From a virus, in the UHGV virus genome UHGV-0180981: a DNA stretch of 11,886 bases; one strand, 5' to 3'. The position numbers were made by a program, and so were the translations under genes. Every line of letters begins with the position of its first letter. Within the stretch, counting starts at the first letter, position 1. The notes under the pieces are model-generated. The model was not told the DNA's origin. It ran no database searches and worked only from the letters and a program-made list of their open reading frames with translations. This document shows, one piece after another, positions 1 through 10,714 of this stretch.

Positions 1-76
1 GCGAAATCGGTAGACGCAGTTGATTCAAAATCAACCGTAGAAATACGTGCCGGTTCGAGTCCGGCCTTCGGCACCA
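1..76 (+). tRNA. leuX: tRNA-Leu (anticodon CAA), 3' portion; the first ~9 nt of the gene lie upstream of the window
   Basis: Sequence matches the recognised leuX tRNA from D-arm onward: anticodon loop with CAA at 26-28, long variable arm, T-arm GGTTCGAGTCC, acceptor 3' end GGCACCA ending at 76. Confidence 0.9.
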
Positions 77-77
77 A
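46..77 (+). repeat. Left copy of 32-bp direct repeat (tRNA 3' end; attL-like core)
   Basis: CGTGCCGGTTCGAGTCCGGCCTTCGGCACCAA is repeated exactly at 10288-10319; flanks diverge immediately outside the repeat. Confidence 0.8.
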
Positions 78-556
78 GTCACTAAATTCCTTACAATACA
101 GCTGGTTAGACGATTAAATCTGTCTCTTTTGCCTGTAAGAAATGCTCTGTTATGTCCCTTGAAAAAGCCGCTGTGGTTGATAGTGGTAATTGGGATGTTA
201 ACTCATAGCGGCGTGTCGTTCCAGGCGTCAAACACGTACTGACTCAACTTGAAAGCTATGACGTAGCCACCGTCTCTAAACAATCCCAAAAACTTTTAGT
301 GAAGCGCATTTTAGCCCGATGCCCCCGTTCTGTCGCCGTCGCGAGACGCCGCAGGGGATAAACAGGTTTATGGTGGTCACGGTACTTGCAGACCATATGC
401 AAGCTCTGCCAGCGGTTCGGCCTCGCTCCCCTTGGGTACATGGTCATCCTGATAAGCCTCACTAACTGACATAACCCTGATGAAGTCGCCAGAGGCTCCG
501 CTTGTTGTCTTACCACCAACGGGGCTTTATGGATTCTATTGCGGTATGTTTGAAAG

Positions 557-580
557 CGCGCGGGGGTTCATTCCCGCGCG
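557..580 (-). terminator. GC-rich hairpin 10 bp downstream of the 304-aa ORF stop (weak U-tract)
   Basis: CGCGCGGG (557-564) pairs with CCCGCGCG (573-580) around an 8-nt loop; on the minus strand only about 3 U follow, so intrinsic termination is uncertain. Confidence 0.35.
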
Positions 581-589
581 TCCGGCGCT

Positions 590-1504
590 TTATGGTAAGT
601 ATTTAAGTATTTCTGCTGCCCAGTTTACACGGTGGATGACACGGGCATGGTGCAAGTTTCCGTCTAGTATTTCGGCTTTAGTTAGCTGGGATAACTGCTG
701 CCAATTATTGTTAAGTATATAAGTTGCGTTATTACATTGTGAGCTTTCTAGCACGTAAATGTTTTGGCCTGTGAACCCAAATATCACGTAGCCTTGGAAC
801 CCAGCTTGCCCAACCGCTACGAAATCTGGTTTTTTACTATTGATAAGTTCAAGTCTGCCTTCAACAACAGCGGTATTGCCCTTTCCCCTGATCTTAATAG
901 CTGAAAGGATTTTTGAACCGATAGTACTCCAAGGCTGTTGACCCTGAGGCAGGAGGCTCCAGTTTAGTTTTATAGATTTACTTTTAACGATGGTATTAAG
1001 TTGGTCGTCAACAGTTTCGCACAACCCAAAAAGCTCTAAAAAAAGATTAATGCAGTGAGCCACTAACTCTTTGTTGTTAGCTGTCAAACTTAGCTTTGGA
1101 GAGATGATCAACTTCTCCCCTTGCAGATTCTCTACAATCTTTAACTCTATGCTTGGTGGAGGGGTGAGGATTCTCTTGTAGCGCTTATACTCAATTTCAC
1201 GAGTGTCAGTAACTTCTTGAGTTGCGCCCCCTCCGATCCATTGCTTTCTAGTCCATGAAATTTGTCTGTATGCAGTTTCTTTAGGTGCTGTTTTGTCAGG
1301 TACTGATTTGCCATTAGCATTGAATCTGGTTATTGGCCCTAAAATTTTGGGGAGGACTTCTTCACCTAAAGCTCTTTGACTTGAGAAACCAATAGAGTCC
1401 GTTTTCCCCGCATCTGGCAAAGAATGTGCAATGTAGATATCACGGCCATCAAAGTTAGGTATGTAATTATCAATATTTCGAATACGCTTTTTCTGAATAA
1501 GCAT
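590..1504 (-). CDS. Hypothetical protein, 304 aa, no recognisable family; AT-rich foreign-looking cargo gene
   Basis: Longest ORF in the AT-rich arm; ATG start with AGGAA about 8 nt upstream on the minus strand; hairpin follows the stop; no motifs recognised by eye. Confidence 0.6.
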   Translation of the reverse strand: MLIQKKRIRNIDNYIPNFDGRDIYIAHSLPDAGKTDSIGFSSQRALGEEVLPKILGPITRFNANGKSVPDKTAPKETAYRQISWTRKQWIGGGATQEVTDTREIEYKRYKRILTPPPSIELKIVENLQGEKLIISPKLSLTANNKELVAHCINLFLELFGLCETVDDQLNTIVKSKSIKLNWSLLPQGQQPWSTIGSKILSAIKIRGKGNTAVVEGRLELINSKKPDFVAVGQAGFQGYVIFGFTGQNIYVLESSQCNNATYILNNNWQQLSQLTKAEILDGNLHHARVIHRVNWAAEILKYLP

Positions 1505-1636
1505 GGATCGTTCCTTTTGATTTTATCTTACTGTTTACATAACCAACCAAGCCGGGCACAATCGAGCCGTTAGAAACGATAGTGAGGCTAACAATCGTTA
1601 TGAGTTTGCAGACTCATGGCGGTCATGCTTCATAGA

Positions 1637-1667
1637 CCGGATTCACGCAGGTGACTCCGGTTTTTTT
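1637..1667 (+). terminator. Rho-independent terminator (plus strand)
   Basis: CCGGA-T-TCAC / GTGA-C-TCCGG stem with 4-nt loop, followed by a run of 7 T (1661-1667). Confidence 0.55.
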
Positions 1668-2338
1668 ATGCCCATCATTTATACATGGGCACAACATATA
1701 GGGTGTGTTAATAAGATTACCCCCTACATGTTCAGCATTCTAGTTAGGATTCTTTGCAGTACAAGGGTTGATTTTGAGGTTAAATTGAGGTTGTCAAAGG
1801 GAAATTTCGACCAACCCTACGTGCCGTAAGGCTTAGGCTGTATGTCAATGTTTCAGAAAAAAAAATGAAAATTTGATCGAGTGCTGATTTCTTTAGCACG
1901 AGAACATGAGAACGAACCAAAATATTGCAAAGTTTTGAACAAAACTTGAACTGCCTCGTGTCTCCATAGCCAAGACGAATGCAGTTTAAATAAGCTAAGT
2001 CAGCTCTCAAAAGTCCTTTATGACCCGAACCAAAAAATGTACCTCTTAAACCCCACCGCAAGCGGCTCTCCGGGGTTTGTGCGCGTGGAGTAATGCGGTT
2101 GTACTGGGTATGTGCGCACAACCCTCTACAAGCCGCATTCTACCGTTAGCCTATAGCTGAATCCCCGGCTTGAAAAATTGTACGCTTATGGTTGCCCCTC
2201 CCTCAACTGTATAGCTCGCCCGCGCCCCCGTGCGCATGTGCGTGCCCGCGCGTCAGGGGTCGCTGAGAAAACCCTAAGATTTTGCTCATCCGAGACAACC
2301 GTTGCAGGCGCGTGTTGCCGAGGGCACACTGCTAGTGT

Positions 2339-2448
2339 TTGATGGTGTCATCAATCGTTCGATTTTTGCTACCTTCCTGAGTGATTACTATCTGGTGTCA
2401 TCAATTTAGGGTTTGACTAAATGCTACCACCAATGCAATGATGCTACC
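2339..2448. promoter_or_regulatory. Repeat cluster upstream of serine recombinase gene (candidate res/operator sites)
   Basis: TGGTGTCATCAAT exact direct repeat at 2343-2355 and 2393-2405; first copy sits in inverted repeat TTGATG-gtgt-CATCAA (2339-2354); TGCTACC three times (2367-2373, 2422-2428, 2442-2448). Confidence 0.4.
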
Positions 2449-2479
2449 GTTTTGTGATACCAGACGGGTGAGGTGAACC

Positions 2480-3055
2480 ATGAGGACTTTTATCTATTGC
2501 CGCGTTTCAACACGCGAGCAGGATACGCAGAATCAGGTGCTGGCTATTGAGCGTGCCGGGTATAAGGTGCCGGAGAGCAGGGTAATCAGTGAGGACATTT
2601 CCGGTAGCGTTCAGGCTATGCAGCGCCCTAAGTTTCGGGCGATGGTTGAGCATAAGCTGGAAGCGGGAGATCAGCTTGTCGTGCTGAAACTGGACAGGCT
2701 GGGGCGCGACAACATCGACGTGCAACAGACCATCGACATGCTGTTAGAACGTGGCGTGAAGGTGGTGTCTCTTGACCTGCCTGCGCGTGATCTGACTTCA
2801 TCTGAGGGCAAGCTAATCCGCCAGATGTTTGGAGCCTTTGCTGAGTTCGAGCGAAACCGTATCCGTGAGAGGACGCTTGACGGGCTGGAGAAGGCGAAAG
2901 CCAATGGCGTTAAGCTGGGACGCAAGGAAGCCACCGACACCACTCAAAAGGTGCAGGAGCTGCGGAGTGAGGGGCTGTCTCAATCGAAGGTAGCGAAGCG
3001 TCTCGGAGTTAGTGTGAGCACCGTTAAACGCCACTGGAACAAGGGCGAGGGGTGA
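2480..3055 (+). CDS. Small serine recombinase (resolvase/invertase family), 191 aa
   Basis: N-terminal YCRVSTREQ catalytic-serine motif, LKLDRLGRD motif, C-terminal HTH (SQSKVAKRLGVSVSTVKRH); GAGGTG RBS about 8 nt upstream of ATG. Confidence 0.92.
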   Translation: MRTFIYCRVSTREQDTQNQVLAIERAGYKVPESRVISEDISGSVQAMQRPKFRAMVEHKLEAGDQLVVLKLDRLGRDNIDVQQTIDMLLERGVKVVSLDLPARDLTSSEGKLIRQMFGAFAEFERNRIRERTLDGLEKAKANGVKLGRKEATDTTQKVQELRSEGLSQSKVAKRLGVSVSTVKRHWNKGEG

Positions 3056-3994
3056 TGACCTACAAGCGAACGAGGTGCTACGACTGGCCGTTACTGGGCT
3101 GTGGGTGATGGATTACCTACAGCTTTTGTATTTATTTCAGAGGGTTATGTTATGCTTAATATCATAACGATATGATTTATAATGTATTTTCGTGTTACTT
3201 GCGGCTCTTGATGTGAAGAGGTGGCGGGGCTTTAGCCGTGCCAGACGATGAACATCGAGATCAGATTGTGAATGTGATTTATCACTGAACAATTCAAGGG
3301 ATGGGGCAGGGGAAGGGATCAAAGGCTGCGTTGTCCAATCACTAAGCTAGATTTGAAGCTGGTGAACACGTTACTAGTATCTTTAAAGTTGCATTTAAAA
3401 TGCATGTACAAAAAAGGGTTCTTCCCTTACATCCCTTCTCCTAAATGTAGTTACGAGTGCTTCGCTCTCTTCACTTGCTGCGCTTCTCGCTATGCTCCAG
3501 CCCGCTCCATCGCCTTTGGCTCATTCCCGGTCTTCGCCCGCTGCTGATGCTCGGCCACTCTACGCAACCGTGCTTGCCGTGGCAGGCAACGCGGCGGGAA
3601 GGTGTAGTGGTACGGTACTATGTATCGGTATTATTAATGTATTCAATCACATACTGTTATCAGTAGGTATCCTTCAAAACATCTTCATCCATTTCTGTAT
3701 CATTCAATCATCTTTCTTGTTCGTTTCCTTTCAGGTCTTAGCCGTTGTTCATTGGTCTTACTGCCTGCTGTGCTACTGCCAGCTATGGCACGCCGTTACG
3801 GTCTACTGTGTCACCTGTCCTACTGCGTTCACTGTCTGCCGTCTGTCATCCTGTCGGATTCCATCCGTCATCCGTTCCGCGCTCGCTTGTTTCGGCTGCG
3901 CCGCGCTCGCTCTGCGTATCTAGCGATACTCTATCACTATAGACACTTTCATAATTATCTAATGATTACAGTAACTTATATTTTTAATTTTAAA

Positions 3995-4255
3995 GGCTAC
4001 TAATAAGGAGATATAGAGCATTACTTTCCCGCTTTTGACCGACAAAAATCGCGTTGTTAAGTATTGCCAGCCCAGGCCCAGTAAGGCTTAGCGAGGTGGT
4101 GGTTAAAAATTGACCTAATGAAAGTATCTACTAAGGAGAAAGAATAACTCCCGAAGCGAGACAAACTCTCCGATTTTGAAAGTGACTATTAAGGCAGATA
4201 AAGACACTGACACTGTTGCCGACATGAAAACCTCTATAAGGGCAGAGAGTCTGCC
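3995..4255 (+). repeat. Four degenerate direct repeats (iteron/operator-like), core CTAnTAAGG(n)AGA
   Basis: Copies at 3995-4019, 4124-4150, 4182-4209, 4231-4255, all in the same orientation in non-coding DNA upstream of the helicase-led array. Confidence 0.5.
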
Positions 4256-4316
4256 GCACCTGTACCACCGCCCCAACCTGAGCTAATACCTACCCCTATT
4301 TTCTGGAGATTTCACC

Positions 4317-6161
4317 ATGCCAACAAACCTACGCCGCCTGCTTGCGCAGGCTGCCGACGCTGACCCGCTCAATACTGCGGACGCAGATGTACAGCAAATG
4401 ATCGCTGACGGGACTGTTATTCGACGTTCCAAGATATGCCCCGTAAAGCGTAAACCCGTTAAGGCGGCATACAACACAAAGACCGAAGAGTTTTATTACA
4501 ATGCTGATGGTTCCGCTATGACCCTGCGGGAGTGGCGAACGCTGCACGGTGTTCAACCGAAGAAGCAAAAACAGCGCTCTGACGCTGGGTTGCGGCAAGT
4601 CATCCAGCCCGGCGACGCGATTCACTGTCGACGCGCTGAGATTGAGCAATGGCTAAATAAAAAGCCTGCTCGTTATGTTGAACCACTGCCGCCAGATTTC
4701 CCCGGCGTTCGCGTAGACGAGGCTGCATTGAAACCGCGCGAGCACGCCGTGCCGGAATCAACAACCGGACAGAATGCTTTTCTCAAAGCCTGCCGCGAGT
4801 TTCTGATTTGCGACGAGAAGACCATGCGCCGCATTAACAGGGGCATGAATAAACTGGAAGCGATGCGCAATACAGATTTCAAACGCTACGGGAACTCAGC
4901 GGAGTTTCGTCAATTGTGGTGTGGAGAGTCGAAACCTACCGAGGATAAATTTAACAGTACAAATCATCATTGTGACCCGAACGGCTTGGCTGCATCGCCG
5001 TCTATGCCGTCACTGAATACTGTGCCGTATGAGTTCCGTCCGCTGGTTCGCTGTGACCGAAACGCACGCGTCAGCCTGCTGCCACCCGATGGGCTGGAGT
5101 GGAGGCCGGGACAGTTGTCTGTTGCTGATGCGATCTTTACCCGTGGTAGGGATGTGCTTGCCGTACTGCCGACCGGGTATGGCAAAAGCGCCGCCTTCAC
5201 TTATCCACTGATTTATGAGTCCCGCGCTGGCATTGGCCTGTCTGTAATCGTGGTTCCTACTAATACCCTTAAGCGTCAGATTCTCCGCCAGTTGCGGGAG
5301 GCTGGCATTCACGCCGTGGCCTTTGGCGATAAGCTACCGAGGCACCGCAACGCACAACAACTGGCGGGACTAGCAGCCGGGGCGTTCCGGCTTGCTGTTG
5401 TTTCGCCTGAACATCTGGTTCCGTCGAGTCAGGTTCTCGCGGCGCTGATGGCTTATGGCGTTGATCGTTTTATTATCGATGAGGCACACACGGTCAAAGA
5501 CTGGGATTTCCGCCCAGCTTACGACGCAATGCAGCACACACTACAGAATGCTTTTCCCTCGGCTCAACGTTGCGTGTTTACGGCTACTCTACTACGTGAA
5601 AATGAGCGCGGTTTAATGGAGGCGCTGGGGTGCCGTGGCAATTACGTCACATTCCGTGCTGATGTTGCTCGCGAGCATATCCAGTTGATTCCGGTCAGGC
5701 AGTGCCGCGAACGTTTCCGAGCGGCTATTGGTCTGGTCGAGGCTCTGCCGAAAGAAGAGAAGACGCTTATTCTCGTCAATGACCTTAAAACGTTGCGGGC
5801 GTACCTGAAACTCTTGGGCGACCGGGCGCGGCCATATCACTCGAAGACGATGCACCTGAGCAACGAGGAACGCCACGCAAACGCTGAGTGGTTTGCCTCT
5901 ACGCCGGGCGCGATTCTTATTGCTACTAAAGCCTTCGGGCTGGGTGCTGATGTTCCTGATATCCGTAACGTTGTCGTGACATACGTCCCCGATGATTTGC
6001 CTGATCTCGTTCAGATGATTGGACGAGCCGGGCGCGATGGGGAACCTGCCCGCGCTTTTCTGCTGTGGTCATCGCTGGCGCTGGATGTTGCGCCTGATGA
6101 GCTTGCTTACTTCTACCGCCCTGAAAACTGCAACTGGCAGTACATCGCTAAATACCTCTGA
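4317..6161 (+). CDS. RecQ-like superfamily 2 DEAH helicase with uncharacterised ~270-aa N-terminal domain, 614 aa
   Basis: Motif I LPTGYGKS, Ia VIVVPTNTL, II IIDEAHTV with DWDFRPAY, III FTATL, VI GRAGRDG; ends about 45 aa after motif VI, so no RQC/HRDC; GGAG RBS. Confidence 0.9.
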   Translation: MPTNLRRLLAQAADADPLNTADADVQQMIADGTVIRRSKICPVKRKPVKAAYNTKTEEFYYNADGSAMTLREWRTLHGVQPKKQKQRSDAGLRQVIQPGDAIHCRRAEIEQWLNKKPARYVEPLPPDFPGVRVDEAALKPREHAVPESTTGQNAFLKACREFLICDEKTMRRINRGMNKLEAMRNTDFKRYGNSAEFRQLWCGESKPTEDKFNSTNHHCDPNGLAASPSMPSLNTVPYEFRPLVRCDRNARVSLLPPDGLEWRPGQLSVADAIFTRGRDVLAVLPTGYGKSAAFTYPLIYESRAGIGLSVIVVPTNTLKRQILRQLREAGIHAVAFGDKLPRHRNAQQLAGLAAGAFRLAVVSPEHLVPSSQVLAALMAYGVDRFIIDEAHTVKDWDFRPAYDAMQHTLQNAFPSAQRCVFTATLLRENERGLMEALGCRGNYVTFRADVAREHIQLIPVRQCRERFRAAIGLVEALPKEEKTLILVNDLKTLRAYLKLLGDRARPYHSKTMHLSNEERHANAEWFASTPGAILIATKAFGLGADVPDIRNVVVTYVPDDLPDLVQMIGRAGRDGEPARAFLLWSSLALDVAPDELAYFYRPENCNWQYIAKYL

Positions 6162-6198
6162 GTCGAAAGGCTCTCCCTGATTCTCTGGAGTTAATCAT

Positions 6199-6636
6199 AT
6201 GCCTGTTACCGAACATGCGCAGCGTCGTGCTGCGCGTGCGGATGCGCTCATCACCGCACAACTAGCCTTCGCCCTGAATGGGTACAACTGGGATGAACTG
6301 GCCGAACCTCATCGCAAGACCCTTAATCGTGAGGCCATCATTCGCGAGGTATCTACACCGCTGGAGCGATATTGCCTGCTGAATGATTGCGAGCCGTGGG
6401 AGTGTCTGGCCGCTGTACTGAACCGCATGAAAAGGCCGGATGGCTCGCGTCGCTGGAAAGCCGTCCGTTTGTCCGACCGGGTTTTCAATGGCCGAGTGCA
6501 TCCAGTGCGCAAAACGCCTGATGAAGTTTACGCCGCCATTGCCCGCCGCTTGTTCCTGCCGAAGCCCGTGCATCAAGAAGTGATACAGCACATCCGTGCG
6601 CTTGGCTTGTTACCAATTGGAGACAACCACCAATGA
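6199..6636 (+). CDS. Hypothetical protein, 145 aa
   Basis: GGAG RBS 9 nt upstream; 37 bp after helicase stop; stop overlaps next start (ATGA). Confidence 0.6.
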   Translation: MPVTEHAQRRAARADALITAQLAFALNGYNWDELAEPHRKTLNREAIIREVSTPLERYCLLNDCEPWECLAAVLNRMKRPDGSRRWKAVRLSDRVFNGRVHPVRKTPDEVYAAIARRLFLPKPVHQEVIQHIRALGLLPIGDNHQ

Positions 6637-6842
6637 CGAAATCTGAATTTGAAAATGAAACATGGCGAATGAAGGGCTTGCTTCTTGGGGCGCTGATTCG
6701 CCGCCTTGAGGAAGATAAGGCTGGCGAGTCGCGCATGGTCGCAGCGGAGTTATCCAGTGCGGTCAACTTCCTTAAGGCCAACGCCGTAGAAGCGCCGGAC
6801 ACATCATTCAACAACGTGTTCCCGGAGGATGACGAGCAATGA
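6633..6842 (+). CDS. Hypothetical small protein, 69 aa
   Basis: ATGA overlap with upstream and downstream genes; GGAGA RBS. Confidence 0.55.
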   Translation: MTKSEFENETWRMKGLLLGALIRRLEEDKAGESRMVAAELSSAVNFLKANAVEAPDTSFNNVFPEDDEQ

Positions 6843-7015
6843 CCCCTGAACAATTCAGACAATGGTTCGCCACGCTGCCACCGAACTATCAGAGCACCGC
6901 ACGCACCATGTACGACAACGCCCGCAAGTCGGGCACACATACCGCGTCAAGCCTTGCGCTGATTCACACGTTGGTTACTGACCAGATCAAATTTGATTCG
7001 GAGTTTAATTTATGA
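6839..7015 (+). CDS. Hypothetical small protein, 58 aa (below the ORF-track length cutoff)
   Basis: Translated by hand: ATG at 6839 overlaps upstream stop (ATGA), stop at 7013-7015 overlaps next start at 7012 (ATGA); GGAGGA RBS about 9 nt upstream. Confidence 0.45.
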   Translation: MTPEQFRQWFATLPPNYQSTARTMYDNARKSGTHTASSLALIHTLVTDQIKFDSEFNL

Positions 7016-7575
7016 CTTTGAGTATTACCGATATCCAGCGCATTAACGCGCTGGCTCATAAGCACCTAAAGAACAATGAAGAGATTGCAGCGGAGACAGG
7101 TCATACCCTGACCGATATTGATGCTGTAATCCGTGGCGTCTATGTCGATGACTTGGCCGAACATTGGAAAGACGATGCTGATATTACTCTGGCGGAGTAC
7201 AACGCCATCCGCAGCCGCTATAAGCCCGGCAAGCTGCACCGCGATACAGAGTTTATGATTGCCCGCGATATGCTGATTCGCCCTGAGACTGTGCTGGCTA
7301 TCGCCCATTCCCGCTTTAGCAACGTCCACACTCACCCAGTGCCGAAAGCCGTCAAAGCAAAGCCGGAGAAAGCGAAAGTAGTGCGCAAGTTGGTGCCTAC
7401 TGATTTAGATGAAATTCACAAGTTAGAGCGCTTCGGTTGGCCTGCTGCGGAGATCGCCGGGAAGCTGGGCGTCCCTGTTGAGGTCGTCGCGCATGTGCAA
7501 CGCTGCCTGAGAAATCGTTGGTCGTACCCGGATACTCTGGAGTCTGTTAACTCCAAATTCAGCGAGGCTGAATGA
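7012..7575 (+). CDS. Hypothetical protein with putative HTH motifs, 187 aa
   Basis: GGAG RBS 8 nt upstream; HTH-like segments near N-terminus and in LERFGWPAAEIAGKLGVPVEVV; ATGA overlap at both ends. Confidence 0.6.
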   Translation: MTLSITDIQRINALAHKHLKNNEEIAAETGHTLTDIDAVIRGVYVDDLAEHWKDDADITLAEYNAIRSRYKPGKLHRDTEFMIARDMLIRPETVLAIAHSRFSNVHTHPVPKAVKAKPEKAKVVRKLVPTDLDEIHKLERFGWPAAEIAGKLGVPVEVVAHVQRCLRNRWSYPDTLESVNSKFSEAE

Positions 7576-7808
7576 TGGCAGAGAACGAACCTCTGCACCC
7601 CGCCGTTAACCCTGATCTCTACGTGAACCTTGACGAACAACGTGAAGGATACGCCCCGTTTGAATCACGCGGCTGGGATGTTCTGACAAAGAACCTGTCC
7701 GGGGAAGGGCGAACTGACCCCGGCCAAATGCTTAACCAGAATCCGAAACAACGCCCGCGCGGCTCCGTTGGTGAGCGTCGTTGGCTTCGTAAACGTGGAT
7801 TACTTTAA
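7572..7808 (+). CDS. Hypothetical small protein, 78 aa
   Basis: Start overlaps upstream stop (ATGA); basic C-terminus. Confidence 0.5.
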   Translation: MMAENEPLHPAVNPDLYVNLDEQREGYAPFESRGWDVLTKNLSGEGRTDPGQMLNQNPKQRPRGSVGERRWLRKRGLL

Positions 7809-7820
7809 CGAGGAATTACC

Positions 7821-8060
7821 ATGAGCAAAACTATCGTATTGCTGCCGCCACGCAAGAATACAGACTGGGCTGCGCAATTAAAGCTGATTTCTGAATCGCT
7901 TGAGGTGAGTCAGGCAGACCTCGCCCGCGCCTATCAGGTTGATCGTCGGGATATGGGTAAAGCGTATCACGGTGTGCGCAAACTGCCGGAACGTTGTGTG
8001 CCTGTTCATATGCTGTTGTTAGCGCAGGTACACGACTTTAGAGCATTATCAGGAGAATAA
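7821..8060 (+). CDS. Cro/YdaS-like HTH DNA-binding protein, 79 aa
   Basis: GAGG RBS; HTH followed by LPERC motif (SQADLARAYQV...GVRKLPERCVPV) resembling phage Cro/YdaS-type regulators. Confidence 0.6.
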   Translation: MSKTIVLLPPRKNTDWAAQLKLISESLEVSQADLARAYQVDRRDMGKAYHGVRKLPERCVPVHMLLLAQVHDFRALSGE

Positions 8061-8063
8061 TTT

Positions 8064-8744
8064 ATGTCTGACCAGAATGTTAATCCGTACCTTTCCGGTG
8101 CTGATACTGCATCGCAGCAATCGCCGTACATGGCTGCACCTGTTGGCGCTGACAATGGCGCATCCCGCTTTAGCTCTGCGCCTGCTGATGCTGATTTCCT
8201 CCGTACCCAACCCGTTAACGGTAATGATGGCGGCCAATGGAATAATGGCAGTATCGCGAATCAGCAGGATCAGAACGCTGACAGCGCCGGGGCGCAGGTG
8301 GGCGATACTATCTCCCTGATGGATGGAACAGCTATTGAGTACACCGCCGAGCTGCAAGGATTGATGGGACAGTTTCATCAGTCTGTCGAAAGCCAGCTAG
8401 GGCAAGGGACAGTTGACGCTATGTTGCAGTACGCTGGCACGCTCGATGCCGGGACGCAATCGACCCTTGAACGGATGGTTATGTCTGGCGACCCTGCGCA
8501 GATGCAGCGAGCCGTTCAGTATCTGCAAGAGAGGATGGCTGGCGGTTCCATTACCGGTTACGTCCCGAACGGCCAGACTGCCGCGCAACCTGTCGGAATG
8601 TCACATGCTGAGTTTATAGCAGCGTATGACCAGCTTTCGCAGTGGGCGCAGCAATCAGGGTATGGCCCCGGCCATCGCCAGTACGACGAACAATACCGCG
8701 CTCTGGTTGCGCAGCGCTCCGCTGGCAAACGTGCTGGCCGCTAA
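8064..8744 (+). CDS. Hypothetical protein, 226 aa, low-complexity N-terminal half, helical C-terminal half
   Basis: AGGAGA RBS 8 nt upstream; starts 3 nt after previous stop. Confidence 0.6.
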   Translation: MSDQNVNPYLSGADTASQQSPYMAAPVGADNGASRFSSAPADADFLRTQPVNGNDGGQWNNGSIANQQDQNADSAGAQVGDTISLMDGTAIEYTAELQGLMGQFHQSVESQLGQGTVDAMLQYAGTLDAGTQSTLERMVMSGDPAQMQRAVQYLQERMAGGSITGYVPNGQTAAQPVGMSHAEFIAAYDQLSQWAQQSGYGPGHRQYDEQYRALVAQRSAGKRAGR

Positions 8745-8861
8745 CACCCAACGGTGGAATGCGCCCTGCAAGACTGAGTGCGCACCAACCCGGTACTACC
8801 ACACCAATCTATGCGCATGAGTCCCCGCAAGCCGTATTCTGCGCGGCATCTGAAAGCCTGT

Positions 8862-8887
8862 TTTTAATTAACCGAGGTTCGTAATGA
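8862..8887. promoter_or_regulatory. hix/gix-like 26-bp site with core AACCGAGGTT
   Basis: Core 8870-8879 is the gix crossover-region sequence; each flanking half-site matches the hix half-site consensus at about 8/12; overlaps the ATG at 8884. Confidence 0.25.
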
Positions 8888-9297
8888 GTACCTGTAATTT
8901 CCATGCCGTGGAGCGTGTCGCTGACGTGCGCCCGGATTTCGCCTTGCCGCTGGGTAGATGCGATCACATTTACCCTGAGCGTGTGCAGCACGTTTTCAAT
9001 CCAGACGAGGCGGTTTATATCGTTGCCCGGTCTGCCACATCCGGCACCCGCACATCTGGCGTTAGCCGTGGGCTTTCCCCTGTGCTGCCGCCGAAGATGG
9101 CCGAGCGCATGCGCGAACGTGAACGGCACGAGAAGAATCGAGCCAGACCCCGCAATGTGATCACTGAGGCAGTACGCGCTGACATTATCGAGCGCTCTGC
9201 AAAAGGTCAGAAGAATCGTTACATTGCAAGCAAGGTTGGTGTGTCTGAAACCTCTGTGCGGAAGGTGTTGAACATGGCGCGTATGAGTGCGCACTAA
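8884..9297 (+). CDS. DNA-binding protein with C-terminal Hin/resolvase-type HTH, 137 aa
   Basis: C-terminal RPRNVITEAVRADIIERSAKGQKNRYIASKVGVSETSVRKVL resembles the Hin DNA-binding domain; no catalytic domain; true start may be an internal Met. Confidence 0.55.
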   Translation: MSTCNFHAVERVADVRPDFALPLGRCDHIYPERVQHVFNPDEAVYIVARSATSGTRTSGVSRGLSPVLPPKMAERMRERERHEKNRARPRNVITEAVRADIIERSAKGQKNRYIASKVGVSETSVRKVLNMARMSAH

Positions 9298-9493
9298 TGC
9301 AAGGTAATACGTTCGCCTTACTTCACGCGCATTAACCCCTGAGAACCGCGCCAGCTCTGGCCTCAAAACGCCCATTCGGGGCACCTCATCCCTTTAATCG
9401 ATACCGTTCTGAATCCTGCCTCGGCGGGAGGATTCCGCACGTCTGTGCCATGACGATGGCGCGGGCTTCATCAACCTATGTAGGAGTTTTGTT

Positions 9494-9991
9494 ATGGCTG
9501 ATACTTCGTACAGTCCCGATCTGTTTCGCCCACACTATGGCGGGGTGGAATCCGACAATGATATTCACATCGAGGCTTATGACCGGGACATCCAGACCCG
9601 TTTAGAGTCCAAATCTGTATTTCTGGCCGAGGGGCTGTCTACATACAGGCCGCTGAAAGCCAGCAACCAATATCGTGTTGATCGCCTGAGTGGTGATCTG
9701 GAGGTGAAGGGCAGAGCCGCAGGGCAATCGCTGGAGCATACCGCCGTTAAGTCGGACAAGCTGATTATCTCTGTGGATACGCTGAGCTATCTCCGCATCC
9801 CGATTGACTATCAGGAGGACTGGACAGCACCCACTTTTCGCTCAGAGCTGAGCCGCAATATGGGTACTGCTCACGCTAAATTCTACGACGAAGCGCACAC
9901 CATCCAGCTAATCAAAGCGACTGACTTTGTATCGCCGCCGACACTGCAACCAACGTTTAACCCACTAAGCGAGTCCATTCCAGAGCAATAG
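9494..9991 (+). CDS. Hypothetical protein, 165 aa; possibly an N-terminal fragment of a T7-like major capsid protein
   Basis: AGGAG RBS 8 nt upstream; by-eye resemblance to T7 gp10 N-terminal region (LF...GG, ED...RSExxxxxGxxxA); ORF ends at about half normal capsid length. Confidence 0.55.
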   Translation: MADTSYSPDLFRPHYGGVESDNDIHIEAYDRDIQTRLESKSVFLAEGLSTYRPLKASNQYRVDRLSGDLEVKGRAAGQSLEHTAVKSDKLIISVDTLSYLRIPIDYQEDWTAPTFRSELSRNMGTAHAKFYDEAHTIQLIKATDFVSPPTLQPTFNPLSESIPEQ

Positions 9992-10154
9992 CATCCCGAA
10001 ACAATCGCGCTTGGCGTACATCGCGTGTCCCTGTGCTTTTCATAAAGTAGCGCTTCCCTTGGAACAGGTGGCGCATGTAGTTGGGGATAGCTATCCGCAC
10101 GAGGTAATTCCCGCAGGGATCTAAAACTAGATAACGATCTCTCTTGAAACTCAT
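9957..10154 (-). pseudogene. Tyrosine integrase N-terminal remnant (about 65 codons)
   Basis: YLVRIAIPNYMRHLFQGKRYFMKSTGTRDVRQARLFRDAIALEWTRL fits the integrase N-terminal arm-binding pattern; stops after 65 codons, no catalytic domain; sits about 130 bp inside the right repeat. Confidence 0.35.
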
Positions 10155-10159
10155 ACAAA

Positions 10160-10185
10160 CCCCGGTTATGTTGTCGGGGCTTTTT
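10160..10185 (+). terminator. Rho-independent terminator (plus strand) near right end of island
   Basis: CCCCG (10160-10164) pairs with CGGGG (10175-10179), optionally extended by a G-U pair, followed by 5 T (10181-10185). Confidence 0.5.
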
Positions 10186-10287
10186 CATGGCTAAACAGTC
10201 TGTGAAATGTGCCGGGGTCATGAGCTTTAGTCTAGCTAGTTCAACAAGTTAACGATGATTGTTGAAGCAAGCTAAGTCGCTATAACC

Positions 10288-10319
10288 CGTGCCGGTTCGA
10301 GTCCGGCCTTCGGCACCAA
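10288..10319 (+). repeat. Right copy of 32-bp direct repeat (attR-like; partial tRNA 3' end only)
   Basis: Identical to 46-77; upstream sequence does not match the tRNA body. Confidence 0.8.
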
Positions 10320-10333
10320 AAGATGCAAATCAA

Positions 10334-10357
10334 AGTCGCTTAAGGGCGGCTTTTTTT
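10334..10357 (+). terminator. Rho-independent terminator, probably the native leuX terminator displaced by the insertion
   Basis: AGTCGC/GCGGCT stem (one G-U pair), 6-nt loop, 7 T (10351-10357), immediately after the right repeat; no equivalent follows the tRNA at 77. Confidence 0.6.
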
Positions 10358-10714
10358 GTGTCTGAAATACACGTAAAGTTTTCCTTTCAACGGAAGACAA
10401 TCTGATTCAGCCAATATCAAATTTCTTATAAGTATAGAACAGAATATATTCTCATTCGATAATTGTCATATTTGTGCATAAGCTTTCCGGTGATTTTGAA
10501 AGGTTATTTGTCTTAGCCTGACGCTTTCCGCTTTATCCTGGAAAAGGAATGTCTGCTGTCCCGCATGGTTTAAACATCTCACATCTGCTGTAACGAACCT
10601 CAAACTTTCTCCATCATTGATTAACTTGCTGTGATTTTGGTCATTGCTCGGGAAGCTTCAGAAAGTTAAAGTAAAAATTATGTTCCTAAAATGTATGCGC
10701 AGGCCTGCATAACA

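Follow-up and report, generated by a model that had tools for sequence, protein, structure and literature searches.

We describe an integrative island of about 15 kb (14.8–15.4 kb) to which the RecQ-type helicase gene of virus genome UHGV-0180981 and the small genes behind it belong. We consider it about 70% probable that this island is an undescribed satellite, a molecular parasite, of virulent Bonnellvirus-type podophages, and that its operon is switched on by the helper's RNA polymerase. We favor this reading over stand-alone defense because the island carries phage DNA signals and copies of head-building genes. The phages to which it is tied are Bonnellvirus-type Autographiviridae, including megetsur, Lidtsur and J8-65, which are virulent T7-like coliphages of the phiKMV-like branch of the T7 family. 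We found no description of the island in the searchable literature, and classification as a P4-like element, a PICI or a cf-PICI was rejected.

Distribution of the island and state of the window's copy

The island is integrated at tRNA-Leu (leuX) or tRNA-Gly in Escherichia, Enterobacter, Citrobacter, Cronobacter and Kosakonia. Comparison of the neighborhoods of helicase homologs, a check proposed in a first-pass annotation of this DNA, gave the same gene order in all five genera and at both tRNA sites, with helicase identities ranging from 96% to 42%, in keeping with that annotation's view of the helicase as the head of a co-oriented array. Among 5,426 complete E. coli genomes, 59 (~1%; E2348/69 included) have the helicase, with one copy per genome. 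Of the 59 E. coli genomes with the capsid gene, 58 have it at full length. The helicase is always accompanied by a set of capsid, HNH, EndoVII and integrase genes. The contigs show the integrated form only, and the IMG/VR matches are likewise integrated copies. In the window, by which we mean the whole stretch of 11,886 nucleotides analyzed here, the following features mark the island and its ends.

1–77, + strand: 3' part of leuX, tRNA-Leu(CAA); the Rfam tRNA match is cut at its 5' end
46–77, + strand: attL core, a 32-bp repeat that recurs at 10288
284–541, no strand assigned: island-left block, flanking cargo hotspot 1
590–1504, − strand: cargo gene (304 aa) in variable hotspot 1 (~545–2048)
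2480–3055, + strand: small serine recombinase of the resolvase/invertase type, 191 aa (Pfam Resolvase 8e-37, HTH_7, phrog_125)
9494–9968, + strand: first ~158 codons of the major capsid gene (phrog_267, 9e-33)
9957–10154, − strand: what is left of the tyrosine integrase, its N-terminal 65 aa, from the ORF list
9966–9968, no strand assigned: deletion junction, 5,155 bp lost by comparison with locus L001
10288–10319, + strand: attR, a repeat of the tRNA-Leu 3' end

The window begins 9 nt inside the tRNA-Leu gene, which is annotated at 2992–3076 of L001, and hsdR starts at ~10711 on the + strand. The leuX setting is E. coli defense hotspot #37, beside the immigration control region, which agrees with the earlier description of a tRNA island next to hsdR in a defense location. 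The block at 284–541 is 94–98% identical across all island variants, including those integrated at tRNA-Gly, and the serine recombinase is present in every island copy. Variable defense cargo occupies two hotspots, both outside the helicase operon; the 304-aa cargo protein of the window has no match in Pfam, PHROGs or PADLOC, and other copies carry DUF3800, DUF2971 or R-M genes in hotspot 1.

Window positions 1–9968 correspond to L001 3001–12968 and positions 9966–10375 to L001 18124–18530, and KFu019 matches the window at 100% as far as 9968. The ORF at 9494–9991, formerly counted as the last of the small genes, is the start of a 331-aa major capsid gene that the deletion has fused out of frame to integrase DNA, so that it runs on to 9991 in foreign sequence. 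In intact copies the array goes on with capsid, HNH, two small genes, EndoVII, cargo and integrase. The deletion removed the remainder of the capsid gene, HNH, p141, p93, EndoVII, the second cargo and most of the integrase (L001 17107–18312; DUF6538 and Phage_integrase). The window's copy is probably immobile, with its helicase operon intact. The earlier reading had missed the capsid fragment, the deletion and the non-coding evidence, the last of which lies upstream of the interval it covered.

Given an integrase, att sites, phage-derived genes and a 5.2-kb deletion in this copy, the island could be what remains of a temperate T7-like prophage in decay, without present function. We regard this as very improbable. 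The same reduced gene set and order recur over five genera at 42–58% protein identity, and genes for RNA polymerase, DNA polymerase, portal, tail and large terminase are missing from every island copy; lysis genes are also absent from the island. For all nine genes of the operon (the helicase gene plus eight), dN/dS was 0.05–0.33 in every computable comparison (no value for two saturated pairs and one pair with zero dS), which, together with the conserved gene order, indicates that they are real genes and argues against decay. Moreover, its non-coding elements are up to 96.6% identical to present-day virulent phages.

Phage-like DNA and promoter-type motifs upstream of the operon

The DNA to the left of the helicase gene contains two non-coding blocks shared with Bonnellvirus-type phages and a set of short motifs.

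2163–2262, + strand: concatemer-junction homolog spanning the left boundary of the Bonnellvirus terminal repeat
3803–3980, + strand: left-end non-coding element, a copy of helper-phage DNA
3930–3952, − strand: leftward phage-promoter-type motif ATGAAAGTGTCTATAGTGATAGA, a 23-nt exact match to a megetsur motif
3989–4011, + strand: P1, phage-RNA-polymerase-promoter-type motif TTTAAAGGCTACTAATAAGGAGA, resembling an annotated LIMEzero 'phage specific promoter'
4118–4139, + strand: P2, ATGAAAGTATCTACTAAGGAGA, one mismatch to a pattern made from three Lidtsur sites alone
4176–4197, + strand: P3, TTGAAAGTGACTATTAAGGCAGA, two mismatches to the Lidtsur-derived pattern

The junction block, a candidate packaging or cleavage site, scores 48.2 bits against Lidtsur 40867–40953 and 41.9 bits against J8-65 40685–40770, the latter spanning the start of the terminal repeat at 40723; the highest score among 500 shuffles was 35.6 bits. 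Searched against 50,697 phage records (2.3 Gb), it matched 11, all Bonnellvirus-type, with E-values down to 1e-6, and the 100-bp block is kept in all island lineages.

The left-end element is 96.6% identical over 177 bp to megetsur 40408–40583 (E 1e-75) and 90–95% identical to 14 further Bonnellvirus-type phages, with glasur reaching 96% over a shorter stretch; no phage outside those 15 Bonnellvirus-type phages matched. In the phage it is flanked by the terminal repeat on one side and the early promoters on the other. Short C/T-rich repeats lead into an AT-rich stretch, an origin- or pac-like composition. Upstream of other helicase alleles, the L008 region has no phage match and the L004 region gives only weak matches, to coding sequence of unrelated phages, so the near-identical element is established for the window's allele only.

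The megetsur counterpart of ATGAAAGTGTCTATAGTGATAGA lies at 18857, just after the RNA polymerase gene, and the P2 core TCTACTAAGGA is identical to a megetsur site at 32246. When the window was searched with the Lidtsur-derived pattern, P2 and P3 alone were found (0.01 expected), while the reverse search found three phage sites against 0.13 expected. The 9-mer CTAHWAAGG occurs at P1–P3 only in 21.5 kb, both strands counted. The phage motif co-varies over three to four homologous loci in Lidtsur, J8-65, megetsur and LIMEzero, and two of the LIMEzero sites carry the record annotation 'putative phage specific promoter'; on this annotation and co-variation we predict that the motif serves as a promoter for RNA polymerase. 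Two to five same-strand copies precede the operon in every island lineage. No sigma-70-like site was found in 3200–4317, and the sigma-70 early promoters of the phage are replaced in the island by three tandem copies of the phage-type motif.

The helicase and the small genes behind it

The operon comprises the helicase gene and eight conserved same-strand genes.

4317–6161, + strand: SF2 helicase, 614 aa, with an orphan modular N-terminus (1–260) and a RecQ-type core (261–590)
6199–6636, + strand: p145, with an allele that co-varies with the helicase allele
6633–6842, + strand: p69, homologous at the N-terminal ~55 aa to gp18-type small terminase of the T7 group
6839–7015, + strand: p58, a fast-evolving allele in a conserved position (42–93% identity among lineages)
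7012–7575, + strand: p187, with three HTH motifs
7572–7808, + strand: p78, kept in all lineages (dN/dS 0.19–0.33)
7821–8060, + strand: p79, Xre/Cro-type HTH protein (HTH_31, E 1e-4 in the L004 ortholog)
8064–8744, + strand: p226, short scaffold-like protein
8884–9297, + strand: p137, with a C-terminal HTH (HTH_23 7e-4; phrog_836 'late transcriptional activator' 3e-3)

The first-pass annotation had this architecture right: the 37-bp gap after the helicase gene and the four ATGA overlaps (6633, 6839, 7012 and 7572) are present, and the HTH regulators it listed correspond to p187, p79 and p137. In p187, which matches phrog_3855, HTH_23/Sigma70_r4/HTH_26 motifs lie at ~10–40, 82–104 and 140–167 (ortholog numbering). 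The first-pass account of the helicase as a RecQ core lacking RQC and HRDC also holds. The motifs are complete (motif 0 WRPGQ at 262, motif I PTGYGKS at 285, DEAH at 388, motif VI GRAGRDG at 569–575), and 39 aa remain C-terminal of motif VI. Similarity to known helicases is confined to the core (Pfam DEAD at 264–428, Helicase_C at 478–575); NCBIfam recQ TIGR01389 is covered at model positions 13–332 of 591 and no more, and the match to the E. coli RecQ structure 1oyw is restricted to residues 25–341, indicating that the Zn domain is missing as well.

Residues 1–260, earlier called unrecognizable, have no match in Pfam, PHROGs or NCBIfam and neither a sequence nor a fold match in PDB. Among 1.84 billion representatives they gave 14 matches, 13 of them the same family or its fragments; the remaining one, P0125, an unrelated repeat protein, looks spurious. 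No recognizable DNA-binding fold was seen in this region, and both AlphaFold models are poor (pLDDT 57–59). In other lineages, paralogs of its subdomain A or B stand alone just upstream.

Two small proteins link the operon to the Bonnellvirus-type phages, both through profile comparisons with modest P-values. For p69, which lacks the C-terminal third of the small terminase, Pfam PF11123 was found at E 3e-4 and was the sole family match in four of six orthologs; TerS ranked first among 55 Lidtsur proteins in hmmsearch (E 1.3e-5), and hhalign gave P 2e-4 with a common motif AAELS..FLK.N. In p226, the last ~95 aa share homology with the C-terminal end of the Bonnellvirus head scaffolding protein, which is 411 aa long (hhalign P 3.3e-5, top among 55 Lidtsur proteins, runner-up 6e-3); tblastn with p226 gave no match, the alignment extends to both C-termini, and the p226 C-terminus is invariant in the family. 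In addition, the full capsid shares 55% identity with Bonnellvirus capsids (98% of its length aligned), with no nearer capsid among sequenced phages, and the island EndoVII matches endonuclease VII of a Bonnellvirus-type phage.

These genes bear on whether the helicase and a few small genes would suffice for immunity, as a DpdF-like or PsyrTA-like antiphage system merely housed in a mobile island. The defense hotspot at leuX with hsdR alongside speaks for such a system, as does the 904-bit match of PADLOC sub-model PDLC02858 'DpdF' to residues 112–614. However, that match runs end to end at near-identity, a score level suggesting that the model was probably built from the helicase's own family, and identification as DpdF was rejected: the curated NCBIfam model scores 123.7 against a cut-off of 550, and no other dpd gene is present. 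There is no PsyrA-type partner, and the PADLOC matches (DpdF models, PsyrT) fall on the helicase and on none of the small genes. Since the helicase always travels with the capsid, HNH, EndoVII and integrase set, p69 and p226 are homologous to the helper's small terminase and scaffold, and the defense cargo lies apart from the operon, in two distinct hotspots, we consider a self-contained defense system very improbable. Of the earlier proposal of an 'antiphage or hijacking module', the hijacking half comes near the evidence.

The possible role of the helicase and a proposed satellite cycle

The helicase adjoins the origin-like region, its allele co-varies with the upstream DNA, and the island holds no other candidate replication protein. 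We infer a role in replication or DNA processing, possibly as an origin-binding Rep-helicase fusion, although SF2 RecQ-type helicases are not known as replication initiators. A tentative alternative, compatible with the satellite model and differing only in the helicase's job, is that it is an interference or defense effector that acts on helper DNA and lowers helper yield. It might, for instance, unwind R-loops or forks where origins are primed by transcription, or disrupt the formation of concatemers, and p145, p58 and p79 would be helper-specific adaptors. RecQ-core helicases without RQC and HRDC are known in defense and toxin systems, and the core matches PADLOC DpdF models, PsyrT (4.9e-39) and NCBIfam DpdF (9e-36). 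The helicase, p145, p58 and p79 form the fast-evolving, allele-swapped part of the island, with 54–71% identity where neighbors show 90–100% (p145 is 66% identical where the helicase is 71% and neighboring genes 97%, at a p145 dN/dS of 0.05–0.11), as expected of parts that touch a changing helper, and the stand-alone subdomain paralogs suggest protein-protein regulation. Nevertheless, the similarity to defense helicases is confined to the generic core, with scores well under the family cut-offs, the helicase has no nuclease or other effector domain, and an effector role would leave the island without a candidate replication protein.

The island is ~0.35 times the size of its helper (41–43 kb), a ratio equal to that of P4/P2 and SaPI1/80alpha, where T=4 heads are formed as against T=7. 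T7 was reported to replicate and package plasmids that bear both a T7 origin and the concatemer junction (Chung and Hinkle, J Mol Biol 1990).

In the satellite model, the operon would be silent in an uninfected cell because three tandem phage-type promoters stand in place of the phage's sigma-70 early promoters, and upon infection the single-subunit RNA polymerase of the helper would transcribe it. The left-end element, phage-like and with divergent promoters and an AT-rich core, may form a T7-type transcription-activated origin. The helicase, a RecQ-type motor with an island-specific modular N-terminal region that may serve in targeting, could open or process island DNA with p145 as its partner, after which the helper replisome would replicate it. 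The junction homolog and the TerS-like p69 would direct the helper terminase to island concatemers, while the island capsid protein and the short scaffold p226 may build heads fitting a genome of this smaller size. The defense genes in the two cargo hotspots would be carried along.

Layout of the island and its deleted copy

We consider it probable, at roughly 0.7, that the island, a ~15-kb tRNA-integrated element, is a satellite of virulent T7-like coliphages. Its family would comprise probable new satellites, and the window holds a deletion derivative. The first-pass annotation had proposed a helicase-headed candidate undescribed system; the system is real, but it differs in nature from what was proposed, being the core operon of this probable satellite.

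Most of the layout described earlier was verified. The helicase gene is followed by a 37-bp gap and by small genes with four ATGA overlaps, and the small genes (named here by length in amino acids) include HTH regulators, namely p187 with three HTH motifs, the Xre-like p79 and p137 with a C-terminal HTH. The setting is a tRNA island beside hsdR, with the window starting 9 nt into tRNA-Leu leuX and ending within hsdR. All nine genes at 4317-9297 have dN/dS of 0.05-0.33 in every comparison where this was computable. The 165-aa gene at 9494-9991, in contrast, is not a small gene in its own right; it is a 331-aa major capsid gene cut down to its 5' half and joined to the start of the integrase gene.

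Features of the island copy in the window
590-1504, minus strand: cargo gene, 304 aa, with no match in Pfam, PHROGs or PADLOC
4317-6161, plus strand: helicase ORF, 614 aa
9966-9968: deletion junction, joining capsid codon ~158 to the integrase 5' end; positions 12969-18123 of L001, an intact copy, are missing
10288-10319: attR

The window equals E. coli KFu019 at 100% identity up to 9968 and then skips 5,155 bp. Right of the junction, identity to KFu019 is only 95.6%, against 100% left of it, and the window therefore derives from a related but distinct strain or from a recombinant. The deletion is atypical, because 58 of the 59 helicase-carrying complete E. coli genomes keep a full-length capsid gene. 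These 59, each with a single helicase copy, were found among 5,426 complete E. coli genomes, and full-length helicase relatives (42-96% identity) occur in Escherichia, Enterobacter, Citrobacter, Cronobacter and Kosakonia only.

The synteny check proposed at first reading came out positive for the small genes, and the whole gene order, HNH position excepted, is constant in every neighbourhood read: cargo slot 1, a small serine recombinase, a variable non-coding stretch, the helicase, 7-8 small genes and the capsid, then, as in the intact copies (KFu019; the reference EPEC E2348/69), an HNH endonuclease, two small genes, an EndoVII homologue, the variable cargo slot 2 and a tyrosine integrase. 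The HNH_3 gene follows the capsid in most islands (L001 13563-14015) and lies upstream of the helicase in the most divergent lineage (L004 9238-9729; L006 4857-5351), which, judged from position, is the behaviour of a mobile homing endonuclease. Islands integrate at tRNA-Leu(CAA) or tRNA-Gly(CCC), and small-gene orthologues are still recognisable at 37-50% identity. The comparison of window 4317-8060 with another island copy, L008, is mosaic: the recombinase (100%), p69 (97%), p137 (97%) and capsid (96%) are nearly identical, whereas the helicase (71%), p145 (66%), p58 (54%) and p79 (54%) are not, and we infer that modules have been swapped between islands.

Cargo slots hold, strain by strain, AbiTii, TIR, DUF3800, DUF2971 or restriction-modification genes. 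The 304-aa cargo gene is a candidate defence gene, because its slot elsewhere holds DUF3800, DUF2971 or restriction-modification genes and it matches no family. The integration site is E. coli defence hotspot #37, most occupants of which were reported without an identifiable mobile element, and its "integrase-only" islands were suspected to be unknown satellites (PMC10121019; PMC12707154).

Directly 3' of the serine recombinase gene, every lineage carries two direct ~26-bp units ending in GATGACCTACAGC, 57 bp apart (window 3043-3125; L008 8171/8228; L011 8870/8927; L013 8673/8730), and a terminator-like hairpin overlaps the second; the pair may serve as a recombinase site. A search for an invertible segment returned zero inverted repeats of at least 16 nt in window 1-4320. 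A 14.8-kb Logan contig proved to be the integrated form cut at the att repeats rather than an excised circle, the public contigs examined showed neither a circular nor a packaged form, and relatives of the capsid in IMG/VR amounted to two island copies. Adjoining attR downstream, 10326-10404 has a weak Rfam match to Aggregatibacter sRNA 82 (34.6 bits against a gathering score of 51.4) that overlaps a terminator-like hairpin after leuX and is probably due to chance.

Links to Bonnellvirus-type phages

The strongest evidence for the phage tie is non-coding. It points to virulent Bonnellvirus-type Autographiviridae such as Lidtsur, J8-65, megetsur, LIMEzero and glasur.

Non-coding features shared with the phages
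2163-2262: concatemer-junction homologue, a conserved block of non-coding DNA that separates cargo slot 1 from the recombinase
3803-3979: left-end element
3989: motif copy P1, TTTAAAGGCTACTAATAAGGAGA
4118: motif copy P2, ATGAAAGTATCTACTAAGGAGA
4176: motif copy P3, TTGAAAGTGACTATTAAGGCAGA

The alignment of the junction block crosses the left boundary of the annotated 259-bp J8-65 terminal repeat, with GGGCCTCCC on the left of the boundary and TCGACC on the right. The block reaches 48.2 and 41.9 bits, whereas the best of 500 dinucleotide shuffles gave 35.6, and in 2.3 Gb of phage records it matches 11 genomes only, all of them Bonnellvirus-type. The ends of packaged island DNA are predicted to lie near 2203 (CCTCCC|TCAAC). 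The left-end element is 96.6% identical to megetsur 40408-40583 (E 1e-75) and 90-95% identical to 14 related phages (glasur 96%, over a shorter stretch), and otherwise has no match. Its phage counterpart lies between the terminal repeat and three sigma-70 early promoters before the first gene; no sigma-70-like site was found at window 3200-4317. Upstream DNA of other helicase alleles gave no phage match for L008 and weak coding-sequence matches to unrelated phages for L004. The regulatory links did not show up in k-mers common to the island and Lidtsur, as other phages are closer.

Between the left-end element and the helicase start codon lie the three same-strand copies of a ~21-nt motif, whose 9-mer CTAHWAAGG is confined to P1-P3 within 21.5 kb. 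A pattern built solely from the three Lidtsur sites picks out P2 and P3 and nothing else in the window (0.01 expected), and the reverse search with the island pattern yields three Lidtsur sites (0.13 expected). One megetsur site recurs as an exact 23-nt copy on the minus strand, at 3952-3930. Across Lidtsur, J8-65, megetsur and LIMEzero, the motif stands at the same 3-4 homologous places, each phage having its own version at all its sites:

behind a hairpin that precedes the primase cluster
after the RNA polymerase gene
where the following gene cluster begins
within an internal-virion-protein gene

Every island lineage likewise has 2-5 same-strand copies upstream of the operon, in lineage-specific variants. 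Co-variation in trans of the kind seen among the phage sites would be expected of a promoter read by the phage polymerase, and promoter function is predicted on this pattern; two of the sites are annotated "putative phage specific promoter" in the LIMEzero record. An exact-motif scan of IMG/VR gave 36 single chance-level matches and zero multi-copy genomes, and a helper was not found that way.

Two further stretches have phage counterparts. Window 117-135, ATCTGTCTCTTTTGC(CTG), matches phage sequence that adjoins the terminal repeat on the right, with 15 exact nt at megetsur 40283 and 17/18 nt at Lidtsur 41162. Alone, this match is not significant (E 0.2); its attL-adjacent place, with the phage counterpart at the repeat boundary, is suggestive. 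On its plus strand, window 3440-3930 has a strong pyrimidine bias (AT skew -0.31, GC skew -0.17); it contains CTG/CTGTC-type short repeats, lacks a conserved ORF and mirrors a CTG-rich stretch after the megetsur terminal repeat (40290-40530). It lies downstream of a leftward phage-type promoter and may therefore be transcribed as purine-rich RNA.

Among the proteins, the island capsid shares 55% identity, across 98% of its length, with the major capsid protein of Bonnellvirus and related virulent Autographiviridae, namely Lidtsur, J8-65, megetsur, Kosakonia Kc261, Pantoea ROV85 and LIMEzero. This is the highest capsid identity to any sequenced phage; at the DNA level the capsid genes are only about 65-77% identical. 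The p69 protein aligns with the N-terminal ~55 residues of the phage small terminase (TerS), with the common motif AAELS..FLK.N; TerS ranks first when the p69 family is searched against the 55 Lidtsur proteins (hmmsearch, E 1.3e-5; hhalign, P 2e-4). The sole family match for p69 is PF11123 (DNA_Packaging_2), sub-threshold in 4 of 6 orthologues, where p69 scores 21.3 against 27.5 bits and covers profile positions 12-47 of 79 only. For p226, the best of the 55 phage proteins is the 411-aa Lidtsur scaffolding protein, whose C-terminus matches the C-terminal ~95 residues of p226 end to end (hhalign, P 3.3e-5; runner-up, 6e-3); tblastn with p226 against the phages gave no match. The profile scores behind the TerS and scaffold links are modest. 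The island EndoVII matches phage EndoVII, and per-family hhalign gave no convincing phage partner for p145, p58, p187, p78, p79, p137, p141, p93 or HNH.

The helicase and its possible role

The helicase has all the RecQ-type motifs looked for, 0, I, Ia, II (DEAH), III, V and VI, among them WRPGQ at residue 262, PTGYGKS at 285, DEAH at 388 and GRAGRDG at 569-575. A RecQ-type DEAH core without RQC and HRDC domains, as described at first reading, is thus confirmed. The NCBIfam recQ models align with residues 261-588 and their matches end at model position 332, having begun at 13, of 591; Pfam reports DEAD and Helicase_C only, with no RQC or HRDC match. The best PDB matches, Cronobacter and E. coli RecQ, share ~30% identity across both RecA-like lobes and align to E. 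coli RecQ residues 25-341 only. Since RecQ matches stop at the core, the Zn-binding, winged-helix (RQC) and HRDC domains are missing. The protein was said to end about 45 aa after motif VI; the tail is indeed short, but its exact length is 39 aa.

Motifs 0-VI are common to the island helicase, RecQ and the RecQ-core defence helicases (DpdF, PsyrT/RqlH), whereas its scores lie under every curated family cut-off, including TIGR00614 (140.8 against 219.8 bits) and TIGR01389 (152.6 against 640.2 bits). We rejected its identity as DpdF: the curated model NF041063 gives 123.7 bits, in the core region only, against a 550-bit cut-off, and the neighbours are capsid, scaffold-like, TerS-like and HTH genes without dpdA-K. 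The PADLOC check suggested earlier was likewise negative, as the small neighbouring genes match no model, and the partner genes of the Dpd and PsyrTA systems are all missing. A PADLOC sub-model labelled "DpdF", PDLC02858, matches helicase residues 112-614 (window 4650-6161) end to end at 904 bits; a match of this kind indicates that it was probably built from the island helicase family, and hence it is not independent evidence for DpdF. Automated pipelines might tag the island helicase "DpdF" through this model.

The N-terminal region, called unrecognisable at first reading, indeed matches only the island helicase family, within which its ~260 residues are strongly conserved. Residues 1-260 gave 14 matches among 1.84 billion representatives (HMMER), 13 of them to island helicases or fragments; the 14th (P0125) seems spurious, its target being an unrelated repeat protein. 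AlphaFold2 models were too poor for use (pLDDT 59 for residues 1-262, 57 for the full length), Foldseek against the PDB found nothing better than E > 1 for this region, and a profile search of PDB sequences stayed at E 0.26-0.66, including a weak, untrusted S4e-like hint. The region is modular, and its two subdomains exist as stand-alone paralogues just upstream of the helicase in other lineages: subdomain A (~1-95) at L008 9675-9977 and L013 9631-9978, and subdomain B (~125-205) at L004 9741-9992 and L006 5364-5621. The allele in the window has no such ORF upstream. Outside the islands, a 256-bp helicase-gene fragment (85% identity) lies in a 240-kb E. coli plasmid (NZ_CP182204.1, 204437-204692) under a gene annotated DEAD/DEAH box helicase.

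A role of the helicase in replicating or processing island DNA is a tentative proposal, and the least certain step of the satellite mechanism. It is argued from three observations: no other gene stands between the helicase and the origin-like region; it is the sole DNA motor in the island, where primase and initiator are both missing; and helicase alleles change together with p145 and the DNA upstream, where window 3327-4303 cannot be aligned between helicase alleles. The live rival is that the helicase interferes with the helper rather than replicating the island, and the modular N-terminus could equally reflect contacts with helper proteins.

Proposed satellite mechanism, known satellites and significance

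The island is integrative, carries morphogenesis and packaging genes together with helper-matching cis sites, and does so without an autonomous virion gene set, as is general for satellites. With somewhat less confidence than in the satellite reading itself, we lean towards regarding it as a miniature integrated T7-like genome and the family as the first recognised satellite family of virulent T7-family (Autographiviridae) phages in Enterobacteria. The island would have retained the helper's genome-end signals and swapped its host-type early promoters for helper-RNA-polymerase promoters that would fire in infected cells only. From phage-type promoters standing where the phage has host-type early ones, we infer that the operon stays silent until helper RNA polymerase appears. 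The left-end element, with divergent phage-type promoters and an AT-rich core, resembles a transcription-activated T7-type origin, and a RecQ-type helicase with a new targeting domain would replace the usual SF3 initiator. The TerS-like p69, half-length scaffold and private capsid suggest that packaging is redirected into island-specific heads, which would be small and built from the private capsid and half-length scaffold.

The island-to-helper size ratio is ~0.35, as also in P4/P2 and SaPI1/80alpha. Chung and Hinkle reportedly found in 1990 that a T7 origin plus concatemer junction suffices for plasmid replication and packaging by T7. Such plasmids combine a phage-promoter origin with the junction, and the island has a homologue of each, but they are laboratory constructs, whereas the island occurs naturally, integrates and brings genes of its own.

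PLE of Vibrio cholerae is a chromosomal island with a serine recombinase that is silent until infection by its strictly lytic helper ICP1 and interferes with helper head assembly and packaging. Its initiator is of RepA_N type, its integrase is a large serine enzyme, and its coat protein is stolen from ICP1. The island is similar in being integrated and in having a serine recombinase, and it would also be similar in its strictly lytic helper, its silence until infection and its interference with helper head assembly and packaging. It differs in its tyrosine integrase and small resolvase-type recombinase, its RecQ-core helicase, its own capsid and scaffold genes, and its predicted helper-type RNA polymerase promoters, possible only with a T7-family helper. 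PLE proteins are absent among the island's matches, and PLE is set apart here by description rather than head-to-head comparison.

Three classes of satellite with temperate helpers or P4-like gene sets were rejected. The cf-PICIs share with the island an Enterobacteria host, their own major capsid protein, an HNH endonuclease and a size of about 15 kb, but their genes cover head formation and packaging completely (portal, protease, connectors, TerS, TerL), they also carry alpA and pri-rep, and all they need from their temperate helpers is tails; the island has a capsid, a scaffold-like and a TerS-like gene only, with portal, protease and TerL in 0 of 8 island copies examined. Gram-negative PICIs (int, alpA and pri-rep, temperate helper) do not fit: intact island copies carry a tyrosine integrase, and no island match to alpA, primase or SF3 helicase was found in Pfam, PHROGs or NCBIfam. 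Nor is the island P4-like, as psu, delta, sid, alpha (primase-helicase) and epsilon are unmatched by its proteins (PHROGs, Pfam). In the satellites with P4 alpha or SaPI/PICI Rep, a helicase that carries an additional specificity domain comes first among the replication genes, beside a repeat-plus-AT-rich region, and the layout of the island would match this; those helicases are hexameric SF3/AAA+ enzymes with a fused or paired primase and proven origin-binding domains, whereas the island helicase is an SF2 RecQ-type protein with an orphan N-terminus and no primase.

To our knowledge, the E. coli satellites described so far (P4-like, PICI, cf-PICI) exploit temperate helpers, and for strictly virulent phages, satellites have mostly been described in Vibrio (PLE, PICMI). 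Our literature search, with most subscription journals outside it, returned no description of the island family or of any Autographiviridae satellite.

A satellite of this kind is, in our view, more interesting than a lone helicase system. If the reading is true, the system is tractable, as the candidate helpers megetsur, Lidtsur and J8-65 grow on MG1655 and an intact island is present in EPEC E2348/69. Induction via helper RNA polymerase, capture of helper genome-end signals, head-size control through a shortened scaffold and a non-canonical SF2 helicase in satellite DNA metabolism would all become testable. The finding also bears on phage therapy, in which Autographiviridae are commonly used. 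Finally, how defence genes at the leuX hotspot get mobilised is a question raised by Hochhauser et al. 2023 (PMC10121019), and the satellite reading, if true, would explain how part of the "integrase-only" defence cargo there moves between strains.
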